A stretch of DNA of 64,000 nt from a phage. The stretch is taken from NCBI GenBank assembly GCA_019234695.1, contig GCA_019234695.1_3937.1. One strand, given 5' to 3'. Below are positions 58,431 through 60,573 of the stretch, in pieces (position 1 is the stretch's first letter; every line of letters begins with the position of its first letter). The notes beneath the pieces are model-generated. The model did no database searches, was not told the DNA's origin, and worked only from the letters and a program-made list of their open reading frames with translations. The translations under genes and the position numbers were made by a program.

Positions 58431-58544
58431 AATGACCTCAAAGTTATATTAAATTTTGTATTACATTGAGTATAAAAATAAGCTATAACACCTGACTTGT
58501 CAACAGATTTTATAGCTTATTTGGCAGATTTTTTATAAGGCTAC

Positions 58545-58930
58545 TGCCATCCTTCCATACCTTACTTTACCACACCTAACCATACCTAACCAAACTATAC
58601 CATACAATACCTTGTTAAAAGACCCTTTTAAAGACCTTTTAAAAAGGTAAGTCTCATTTTAATGTAGCTGAGACTAACTACCCATACATTACCTTACCAT
58701 ACCAGACCTCACCCTACCTTAACTTACCTTACTCTATCCTACCAAACACCACTTAAAAACCCTCTTAGAAGACTCTTAAGTGATGTAATCGGATTTTTAT
58801 GTAGCTCCGATTAACTACCCATACCAAGCCTAACCTGACCGCACCAAACCTTACAACACCACACCATACCTGACCATACCAAACCTCATTAAAAGACCCT
58901 CTTAAAGACCTTTTAAAAAGGAGCCTCCGA
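58545..58930. repeat. G-depleted (C/A/T-rich) tracts with conserved-loop hairpins, region 1
   Basis: plus strand nearly lacks G over long CCATACC-type runs; hairpins at ~58660-58687 and ~58787-58814 share loop TTTWATGTAGC. Confidence 0.6.
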
Positions 58931-58941
58931 AGAGGCTACCT
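58914..58941 (-). terminator. terminator-like hairpin downstream of 58949..59389 (minus strand)
   Basis: minus strand reads AGCCTCTTCGGAGGCT then CCTTTTT. Confidence 0.45.
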
Positions 58942-58948
58942 AGTCAAC

Positions 58949-59389
58949 TTAGAAAGGTTTTCTACGTTGCTTGTTAATGTTAGCTTTCATAGCAGCTAAA
59001 TGGTTTTGCTGTTCAATCAGTCGTGAGCGTTCTTGATGGCTAAGTGCCATAGTGTTCACATTCTCAATTGCTTGAGTGGCTTGCTTTAAAGCGCGACCAA
59101 TCTTACCAGACATTTTACGTTTTGCAATAGTTGCTTGATGCTTAGGTTCAACCACACGATAACCAACACCCATTGAAGCAACCAGATAAATCTTCTCTTC
59201 TTTAAGAAGCTTCTCAATAAACTTCTCAAGTCGGTTTAGACGTGTAAGCGCATAAGCCTTCATTTCATCTTCGTACTTAACAATGTCACCTTGATAAGTT
59301 GGCTTCACAATACCTAAGAAGGTGTCCATCTCAGAGTGTGATACAGTGTCACCGTAACTAAACTTTGCTGCTAATGCTTTTGTATTCAT
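58949..59389 (-). CDS. hypothetical protein
   Basis: ORF track; followed on minus strand by hairpin plus T-tract. Confidence 0.5.
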   Translation of the reverse strand: MNTKALAAKFSYGDTVSHSEMDTFLGIVKPTYQGDIVKYEDEMKAYALTRLNRLEKFIEKLLKEEKIYLVASMGVGYRVVEPKHQATIAKRKMSGKIGRALKQATQAIENVNTMALSHQERSRLIEQQNHLAAMKANINKQRRKPF

Positions 59390-59391
59390 AA

Positions 59392-59994
59392 TTAAACGTT
59401 ACCTTCTGAAATAACTTCTACAGAAAAACGACCAAAGCGTGGACGCCAATCACCTACACCACAAAGGTTACCAGCATTTTCCAGAACCATCAGGAGTTCT
59501 TCTTTGGTAATTTGTTCTTCATCGAACATCAAACCAAACTCTACAGACCAATCACGGAAGATTGGACGGTAGCTCATAACTCGTGCTGTACCAATCTTAA
59601 CAGACTTAGCATAGATAAAATCTGGATTCTTAGCAAGTTCTTGTGGGTTTGCTGGACAGTTCTTGATAGTCATTGGGAAGACTACATCTGTCAGCATAAT
59701 GGCTCGGTCAATTACCTTACCAAGTTTGTTGAGTTTTGCACCAGACTTGATACAAGCCTCAATCATCTCACCGTTCATAACAAAACCTAGCTGCTCATCG
59801 TAGTAACAAGAGGTTACCAGTTGACTTTCTGCTAAGAGCGCATAGTCTTCGTCAGTCTTTTTACGTTTACTGGACAGAGACTTGTGATATTTTGTCAGAG
59901 GGTTTAATGGGTCTGACAACGTATCGTTATGGCTCAAGAAAGGACGAGTACCAGTGATTTTGATATTTAACAGTTTCATAGCATTTAGCTCCAC
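59392..59994 (-). CDS. hypothetical protein
   Basis: ORF track; 2-nt spacing to downstream gene. Confidence 0.5.
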
Positions 59995-60074
59995 ACTTTA
60001 GTTGATTGTTAAGTTGTTTGTAAAGAACCCTCAACAGAAGACTCTTTAGAAACTTGGTAGATTTTTAACGTGGC

Positions 60075-60360
60075 TACTACCATCCACCCATACCATACCG
60101 AACCTTACCTTACCAAACCAGACCGCGCCTTACCAAACCAGACCAAACATTACTTTACCCTACCTCATTAAAAAACCCTCTTAAAGACCTTTTAAAAAGG
60201 TAAGTCTCATTTTAATGTAGATGAGACTAACTACCCATACTGTACCGCACCTGACCCGACCTGACCAGACCTAGCATTACCGTGCCACACCGTACCGAAC
60301 AGAACACTACCATACCTCACATCACTTAAAAACCATCTTAGAAGACTCTTAAGTGATGCT
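60075..60360. repeat. G-depleted tracts with conserved-loop hairpin, region 2
   Basis: 60165-60240 near-identical to 58615-58687; CACTTAAAAACC.TCTTAGAAGACTCTTAAGTG at 60322-60358 matches 58749-58787. Confidence 0.6.
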
Positions 60361-60573
60361 GGTGAGTACCCGTTGGTTTATGCTGCTCAGTATACTCACC
60401 AAATTTTCTATGTCAACAACTTTTTATAAAAAAGTTCTGATAGCTATATGTGTCACGAAACAAAAGATTGTAAACAAGACACCCATTGCAAAAGATGTGT
60501 CCAAAAGCTTACTTGCAACGTATGACAATACAAAGACAACCAGTATAAACAGAATGACTGTACTGAACATAGT

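Follow-up and report, generated by a model that had tools for sequence, protein, structure and literature searches.

What are the two repeat-rich regions, at 58431-58948 and 59995-60573, that flank a pair of leftward genes in a 64-kb stretch of phage DNA (assembly GCA_019234695.1; the whole stretch is called the window, and coordinates follow the numbering of its + strand), and do they have anything to do with the genes between them? A sequence-only reading of this DNA described G-depleted runs and conserved-loop hairpins in both regions, and offered an R-loop-primed origin, an attenuator or a structured non-coding RNA as explanations. It left the repeats unconnected to the two enclosed genes, which belong to the same system. 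With a probability of roughly 95%, what lies at 58521-60416 in this Felixounavirus is a type II VIPR (Viral Interference Programmable Repeat) locus, complete and belonging to the SUSP1 clade. Five guide RNA genes (vrRNA genes), all in the minus sense, are arranged around the vipr-vap1 operon, two upstream and three downstream; this layout, a two-gene operon of vipr and vap with same-strand intergenic vrRNA genes on both sides, is that of VIPR. The system is already known from two bioRxiv preprints issued in 2026 by one group (10.64898/2026.04.26.720920, 10.64898/2026.04.26.720927), and the feature is real and important and of no new kind.

As described in these preprints, VIPR comprises Vipr, a minimal RAMP-fold protein, an accessory Vap protein and vrRNAs of ~100 nt, which consist of 9-16 YNNGG repeats and a 3′ tail of ~40 nt with a pseudoknot. 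Phage SUSP1 has four vrRNAs, one upstream and three downstream of the operon; they are expressed, they co-purify with Vipr, and target transcription is repressed by the complex. Cryo-electron microscopy (cryo-EM) of the SUSP1 complex is reported to place one Vipr protomer on each repeat, with GGY sequestered and NN exposed. The code is gapped, two of every five guide nucleotides pairing with two of every three target nucleotides. Natural targets are defined by an NN match of at least 80% under a 1-nt skip, and the SUSP1 clade, which counts 13 loci and has identifiable targets for 20 of 41 vrRNAs, converges on a satellite phage. It has also been proposed that VIPR predates CRISPR (clustered regularly interspaced short palindromic repeats) (10.64898/2026.04.26.720920, 10.64898/2026.04.26.720927).

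Assignment to type II and to the SUSP1 clade follows from the two proteins. Vipr (195 aa, RAMP-like; 59392..59979, minus strand) is identical at 191 of 195 positions, over its full length, to the 'SUSP1 Vipr protein' of PDB entry 36pp, chain D (E 6e-128), and this identity of 98% lies above the threshold of >90% to SUSP1 Vipr that delimits the clade. The vipr-accessory protein vap1 (146 aa; 58949..59389, minus strand; phrog_5926) shares 145 of its 146 residues with the product of the gene downstream of vipr in SUSP1 (L013). The residues named in the cryo-EM preprint as contacts of G1, G2, Y3, the skipped base and the non-target strand, read from the alignment, are all present in Vipr (H17, K33, R39, E71, M72, K82, G87, K88, R138, C173, D177, W178 and R179), and their numbering fits a start at the ATG at 59979, not at an upstream GTG. 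Pfam, PADLOC and NCBIfam hold no family for either protein, Vipr falling only in a PHROG of unknown function. The PDB contains no match for vap1, and neither Pfam nor PADLOC detects a Cas family at the locus.

The repeats carry the signature of the same system. The G depletion first noticed is readily confirmed: no G-free runs elsewhere in the window are as long as the two in these regions (67 and 62 nt), where GC skew drops to -0.7. The G-poor runs consist of (NNACC)n pentamers in strict phase, 12-18 units each, with ACC-to-ACC spacings that are almost all 5, 10 or 15 and a C autocorrelation of 0.5-0.77 peaking at lags 5, 10 and 15. Exactly five phased tracts occur in the 64 kb, all on the + strand and all inside the two repeat regions, and none of the other trinucleotides scanned across the window shows such a 5-nt pattern. 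The minus strand reads (GGYNN)n, that is, the tandem YNNGG of VIPR with conserved GGY and hypervariable NN, and each tract holds 9-14 canonical GG repeats. Among 44 unique related tracts, information reaches 1.25, 1.84 and 1.53 bits at the GGY positions and 0.08 and 0.10 bits at the NN positions, and 39 distinct NN strings are found.

This phasing bears on the R-loop-primed replication origin, in which a leftward transcript on the C-rich template would form a stable G-rich RNA:DNA hybrid and prime DNA synthesis. Such an origin could draw on the strong leftward promoter and strand asymmetry of the region, and on its place within the replication-gene cluster, adjoining the ligase gene and near the polymerase gene. 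The G-richness, which had been read as a composition favouring R-loops, has its source in a protein-read GGY motif recurring every 5 nt; a phased GGY with free NN fits such a code better than a compositional need. In VIPR, R-loops are described as arising at the DNA targets of the guides, not at the guide locus (10.64898/2026.04.26.720927).

Each tract belongs to one vrRNA gene on the minus strand, with boundaries predicted from pentamer parsing and tail covariation. Upstream of the operon, vrRNA 2b (60204..60319) has a tract at 60232-60319 (18 pentamer slots, 13 with GG) and a tail hairpin GTCTCA/TGAGAC with pseudoknot at 60204-60240, and vrRNA 2a (60054..60167) has a tract at 60085-60167 (17 slots, 14 with GG), a stem GGUAG/CUACC and a pseudoknot GUGG:CCAC; the tract and tail of 2a are identical in several relatives. 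Downstream of the operon are vrRNA 1c (58788..58888; tract 58816-58888, 15 slots, 13 with GG; stem AAUCGGA/UCCGAUU, pseudoknot GUAG:CUAC), vrRNA 1b (58650..58746; tract 58679-58746, 14 slots, 9 with GG; stem AGUCUCA/UGAGACU) and vrRNA 1a (58521..58614; tract 58552-58614, 13 slots, 9 with GG; stem GGCAG/CUGCC, pseudoknot AAGG:CCUU). On the + strand, every unit runs from the hairpin through a conserved CCCATAC-type flank and (NNACC)12-18 to a conserved module.

The conserved-loop, swapped-stem hairpins with their TAACTACCCATAC flank are the 3′ tails of these vrRNAs. The flank has exactly three copies in the window (58675, 58812 and 60228), and the stems GTCTCA/TGAGAC (twice) and AATCGGA/TCCGATT (once) indeed border the loop TTT(T/A)ATGTAG(C/A). 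The three hairpins of the sequence-only reading therefore stand, and only their count has to be revised, as two further members, TGGCAG/CTGCCA at 58521-58552 and TGGTAG/CTACCA at 60054-60085, raise the units to five. The tail, ~35-40 nt long, is a hairpin of 5 pairs with a 4-bp pseudoknot, as in VIPR. Loop and flank are both conserved while stems are swapped because the two pair together as the pseudoknot, for which three variants exist (GUAG:CUAC, GUGG:CCAC and AAGG:CCUU). In an alignment of 14 distinct tails, 98.4% of cells are paired, and compensatory changes affecting both sides are seen at 8 of 9 pairs; the observed values are never attained in 500 shuffles, and slid controls give 28-37% pairing. 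Selection on structure, which had been suspected from the swapped stems, is thus confirmed by covariation, and of the three options offered at the outset it is the structured non-coding RNA that holds, the units being vrRNA genes. Rfam yields no match at E <= 1 for the locus.

Which DNA do the guides address? When the locus was compared by BLAST with 5,426 complete E. coli genomes, only a vrRNA-like stretch of ~90 nt matched, in 152 chromosomes. It sits in an island of ~11 kb bounded by serine recombinases (e.g. L140 18.3-29.8 kb; also L141, L142 and L146-L149), inserted either between ymdF and wrbA or in a disrupted DUF72 gene beside yecN. Tape-measure and Dit-like baseplate genes are among the genes of the island, joined in most copies by an HNH endonuclease, and the island has its own vrRNA-like gene (tail stem GUCG/CGAC) without vipr; it fits the satellite as described in the preprint text available. 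Some copies are riddled with insertion sequence elements (L143).

The NN strings of the five guides were scanned against eight satellite copies, sampled from the 152 genomes with a match. Guide vr_2b (of vrRNA 2b; the others are named likewise) matches 27-30 of 34 guide positions in all eight copies, at one homologous site inside the first coding sequence (CDS). Guide vr_1c matches 23 of 28 positions (21 of 22 without the end dinucleotides) in the same CDS, on the strand opposite to the vr_2b site, and vr_1a up to 22 of 24, ~65 bp upstream of that CDS; vr_2a and vr_1b give no match above background in the eight copies. Predicted sites include L146 (NZ_CP017631) 14982-15032 for vr_2b, L141 15061-15102 for vr_1c and L146 14579-14614 for vr_1a. 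Matches appear with a 1-nt skip alone, and skips of 0, 2 and 3 nt produce none above background. In four copies, guides with shuffled NN order attained the observed scores of 29/34 (vr_2b), 23/28 (vr_1c) and 21/24 (vr_1a) in 0/300, 0/300 and 1/300 trials, respectively. At both intragenic sites the skipped base is codon position 3, as derived by hand from hit positions and annotated CDS starts, which agrees with what the preprints report (10.64898/2026.04.26.720920, 10.64898/2026.04.26.720927). Three of the five guides thus match an E. coli element at 82-92%, within the range of natural VIPR targets, and most vrRNAs of related phages match the satellite at 88-100%. The window contains no self-target at 72% or more, and the targeted 184-aa satellite gene has neither Vipr homology nor a Pfam family.

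The mechanism published for the 98%-identical SUSP1 system can be carried over to this phage by analogy. The locus would be transcribed leftward into five vrRNAs, each with a GGYNN tract and a 3′ tail. Vipr protomers would bind one repeat each and sequester GGY, building a helical filament on which the NN dinucleotides are exposed; these would pair with double-stranded DNA, skipping every third target base, so that an R-loop triplex would form and transcription would be blocked. At least three of the five guides appear to be aimed at one ~11-kb E. coli satellite, at its first gene and the region just upstream. Given these matches, the system would silence a parasite or competitor of the phage.

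Several points weigh against identifying the locus as a working VIPR system of this kind. Expression, RNA ends, Vipr binding and silencing are all transferred to this phage from SUSP1, and the source papers are preprints. Two units, vr_1a and vr_1b, have just 9 canonical GG repeats each, several of their pentamers being degenerate. The best satellite matches, at 82-92%, are imperfect and come from 8 copies sampled of 152 genomes. Two of the five guides, vr_2a and vr_1b, are without a target; when viral, genome and metagenome collections were scanned for their exact patterns, one match was returned for each, in unrelated low-GC contigs and with the non-required positions at chance level. This proportion is in line with the 20 of 41 clade vrRNAs with targets given in the preprint text. 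Finally, a terminator precedes the three downstream vrRNAs, which would have to be transcribed past it.

The distribution of the locus among relatives speaks against an origin. By megablast, 252 phage records match 58300-60700, nearly all from Felixounavirus and Ounavirinae relatives (wV8, heid, REP5, Moogle and SUSP1), with thymidylate synthase and dihydrofolate reductase on one side of the neighbourhood and DNA ligase and polymerase on the other. The genes of the locus are labelled 'hypothetical protein' in these records, and the repeats at most 'repeat_region' or 'DR_4'. Only 132 phage records hold vipr, against the 252 that match the neighbourhood, whereas an essential cis element would be conserved in the whole phage group. 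In Felix O1 (L004 4633-4914), L005, L012 (4029-4461) and L018, vipr and vap1 are missing and the flanking genes are directly adjacent. With both genes and nearly all of the region lacking in Felix O1 and in roughly half of the related phages, the region can be no essential origin, and an R-loop-primed origin is considered extremely improbable.

In the vipr-less relatives, the interval from the ORF127 homologue to the ligase gene still holds one or two vrRNA-like units, with GGY phasing intact. The orphan vrRNA of L012 (4157-4224) matches the E. coli satellite at 22 of 24 positions under a 1-nt skip, a score reached in 0 of 200 shuffles; for the single unit of Felix O1, no match was found in the eight E. 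coli satellites. Felixounavirus sequence also turns up in two records whose names point to a Gram-positive or a Campylobacter host: GU169904.1, 'Staphylococcus phage SA1', holds the whole VIPR locus, and MG065668.1, 'Campylobacter phage A126', matches part of the vrRNA region only. Both records are probably mixed or mislabelled.

Across relatives, one to three units lie downstream and one or two upstream, which invites another reading, namely that the units are recombination modules, portable homologies comparable to PeSL cassettes, that shuffle an accessory two-gene cassette in and out. Besides the variable unit number, the single chimeric unit of Felix O1 looks like a unit-to-unit deletion product, and assemblies break at the units, as at the end of the phage warpig record. 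Recombination between units clearly occurs, as copy-number variation and the chimeric Felix O1 unit indicate, and it explains the gain and loss of units, not the code. Strict GGY phasing, compensatory tail changes and matches to foreign targets would all be left without a cause, and the genes of the supposed cassette are the protein partners of the repeats. As an account of what the units are for, recombination has very little probability; it is best seen as a by-product that drives guide gain and loss.

Is the pairing of repeat and protein found outside this phage group? A blind, exact scan of IMG/VR for (ACCNN)x6 gave 120 loci, many of them simple microsatellites and ~40 with diverse NN. The complex tracts are often arrayed, with up to 12 units joined by short conserved junctions. 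In ~25 unrelated viral contigs, the ACC strand is antisense to the neighbouring genes, and the transcript therefore reads GGYNN; open reading frames (ORFs) of 175-200 aa beside the tracts are homologous to the 195-aa protein of the window. With an iterated profile, Vipr homologues were found in the fetched stretch of 28 of 40 complex-tract loci versus 1 of 79 simple-repeat loci. Across unrelated phages, repeat and protein therefore make up a single conserved module, the tracts adjoining Vipr homologues whatever the replication genes, a further point against an origin.

Two IMG/VR loci (L054 2217-3404 and L042 4602-5047) carry 7-12 tandem vrRNA-like tracts beside distant Vipr homologues. Their tracts are separated only by junctions CCCATTAGCC or AAATTAAATTCATTAAACCATTCC and lack the SUSP1-type tail; these may be other types of VIPR array. 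At least 12 viral contigs with no other relationship (L022, L023, L028, L039, L043, L045, L065, L066, L081, L101, L104 and L108) share a near-identical 38-nt sequence, TCCTTACCTAACCTAACCTTACCTAACCTAACCTGTGT; their fetched stretches are free of Vipr homologues.

Consecutive vrRNAs are separated by spacers, which contain the repeated module CATTAAAAGACCCTCTTAAAGACCTTTTAAAAAGG and its variant CACTTAAAAACCCTCTTAGAAGACTCTTAAGTGATG. As first claimed, AAAGACCTTTTAAAAAGG occurs exactly three times in the window (58630, 58904 and 60183), where 0.26 copies are expected by chance. In the vrRNA (minus) sense, the spacers fold into G·U-rich hairpins of 17-20 bp with -12 to -19 kcal/mol, against -5.5 to -10.6 in the opposite sense. 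On this strand, the B2-type spacer 5′ of vrRNA 2b (60320..60358; CACTTAAAAACCATCTTAGAAGACTCTTAAGTGATG on the + strand) reaches -17.9 kcal/mol (z -4.0) versus -10.6 in the plus sense, and the B1-type spacer between vrRNAs 2b and 2a (60168..60203), with module copy CATTAAAAAACCCTCTTAAAGACCTTTTAAAAAGG, reaches -15.3 versus -5.5 kcal/mol. Downstream of the operon, also on the minus strand, a B1-type spacer 5′ of vrRNA 1c (58889..58921) was recognized by motif copy and folding and holds the module exactly as first quoted; a B2-type spacer 5′ of vrRNA 1b (58747..58786) forms a 19-bp hairpin of -19.1 kcal/mol (z -5.9) versus -6.6 in the plus sense; and a B1-type spacer 5′ of vrRNA 1a (58615..58649), identified as a motif copy, carries the third, slightly diverged module. 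In some spacer hairpins, the end of a vrRNA unit is base-paired with the opening repeats of the following one.

The minus-sense stability of these hairpins fixes the functional strand independently. Together with the GGT-sense tracts of other viral contigs, it upholds the earlier proposal that the leftward transcript is the functional one. Position and fold also suggest that the spacer hairpins demarcate or process individual vrRNAs. The preprint text, as far as it is available, holds no discussion of vrRNA biogenesis in this VIPR type (10.64898/2026.04.26.720920, 10.64898/2026.04.26.720927). A tentative combined proposal, with a clear minority of the odds, is that the spacers are processing signals (e.g. 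for host RNase III) defining the ends of type II vrRNAs and that orphan guides, which the satellites themselves also carry, use Vipr in trans during co-infection; no coverage of either point was found in the same text.

The second region, described as noncoding like the first, is only partly so. It holds a conserved hydrophobic ORF of 48 aa (60424-60570, minus strand; phrog_22006), located between the ligase gene and the VIPR promoter, and a strong leftward sigma-70-type promoter, TTGACA-16-TATACT (60389..60416, minus strand), which has 11 of 12 consensus matches and is conserved in sequence in Felix O1. Transcription of the vipr-vap1 operon and of the upstream vrRNAs probably starts from this predicted promoter. 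A 9-bp inverted repeat, TGGTGAGTA/TACTCACCA at 60360-60368 and 60393-60401, overlaps the -10 element and predicted start of the promoter; it is also conserved in Felix O1, except for one mismatch in the 3′ arm. Directly after vap1, an intrinsic-terminator-like hairpin, AGCCTC-TTCG-GAGGCT with a T run (58922..58937, minus strand), recurs at the corresponding position in SUSP1. The left border of the locus, outside VIPR, is the sigma-70-type promoter TTGACA-17-TATTTT (58475..58503, minus strand) of the next leftward gene, a 127-aa ORF; it is conserved in SUSP1 and Felix O1.

This arrangement allows the attenuator to be weighed, in which the upstream tracts would serve as a TRAP-like platform in cis and the 195-aa protein would regulate its own operon. 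Two tracts do follow the promoter (60416) and precede the vipr start (59979), and are hence in the operon leader, and in formal terms an oligomeric protein that reads triplets with a 5-nt period resembles TRAP. However, three of the five units are beyond the operon terminator, no terminator/antiterminator alternative was found between the upstream tracts and vipr, and a cis platform does not call for hypervariable NN, nor for NN that match foreign DNA by a specific rule. Attenuation is accordingly held to be highly unlikely as the function of the units; autoregulation by Vipr may exist as a secondary effect.

Other candidates were rejected. A CRISPR array would show near-identical direct repeats of 23-50 nt, unique spacers and cas genes; no CRISPR-like direct repeats were found at the locus, only units of ~137-150 nt with internal 5-nt periodicity, and no Cas family. 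T7-type primase recognition sites (GGGTC/TGGTC) fit some pentamers only. Rho rut sites would belong to an antisense (+) transcript, for which both promoter and gene are absent on that strand. Two-tetrad G-quadruplexes are needless, as a protein-read GGY code accounts for the tracts, and hairpins of an HUH/IS200-type or geminivirus-like origin are countered by the absence of an HUH protein (Pfam). Genome termini or a packaging site are apparently elsewhere, since the UAB_Phi87 record, with ends mapped experimentally, starts beside the tRNA cluster. The deposited genome of phage warpig (MN850637.1) stops (86106) exactly at the first vrRNA tail hairpin, and this end is most simply an assembly break at repeats, not a physical terminus.

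The preprints present VIPR as RNA-guided DNA recognition of a new kind (10.64898/2026.04.26.720920, 10.64898/2026.04.26.720927). The window offers a natural, complete example in well-studied phages, relatives of Felix O1 and wV8, which are used for typing and biocontrol. For annotation, it matters that no Pfam, Rfam, NCBIfam or PADLOC model detects the locus. For phage biology, the locus helps to explain phage-satellite conflict in E. coli, with relevance to the choice or engineering of therapeutic phages. It raises no question beyond those in the preprints.

The locus can be compared with several known systems. R-loop origins are known from ColE1 and T4 (oriF and oriG), as are PeSL cassettes from T4-type phages. 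With these origins the locus shares a promoter-driven, G-rich transcript over a C-rich template; it differs in being dispensable in close relatives, in having a phased motif instead of a general skew, and in giving no sign of origin function. In the trp leader of Bacillus, TRAP, a ring protein that regulates in cis by attenuation, reads 11 (G/U)AG triplets separated by spacers of 2-3 nt, and these spacers carry no information. The likeness, a general resemblance, is that an oligomer reads a triplet every ~5 nt on single-stranded RNA with variable spacers. In VIPR, in contrast, the spacer nucleotides are the information, and they act in trans on DNA.

Class 1 CRISPR-Cas effectors, Cas7-family RAMP filaments on crRNA, offer another comparison. 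According to the preprint text, in both systems a RAMP-fold protein oligomerises on a guide RNA, thumb insertions periodically interrupt guide-target pairing, and a variable guide part is capped by a conserved structured handle. VIPR differs in having no repeat-spacer array, adaptation genes or nuclease, and its specificity is interleaved (2 of every 5 nt), not contiguous.

The nearest system is the type II VIPR of SUSP1. The present locus differs from it in having two upstream vrRNAs instead of one, and five guides instead of four, in the NN content of the guides, and in its host genome, a Felixounavirus known from sequence alone instead of a Suspvirus. The two share Vipr and vap1 at 98% and 99% identity, the same GGYNN repeats and the same three tail types, each with hairpin and pseudoknot. 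The experimentally characterised SUSP1 order of terminator, spacer, vrRNA, spacer, vrRNA, spacer, vrRNA and next promoter is the order at 58948-58475 here, and the class of target is likewise the same, an E. coli satellite element read under the 1-nt skip rule.

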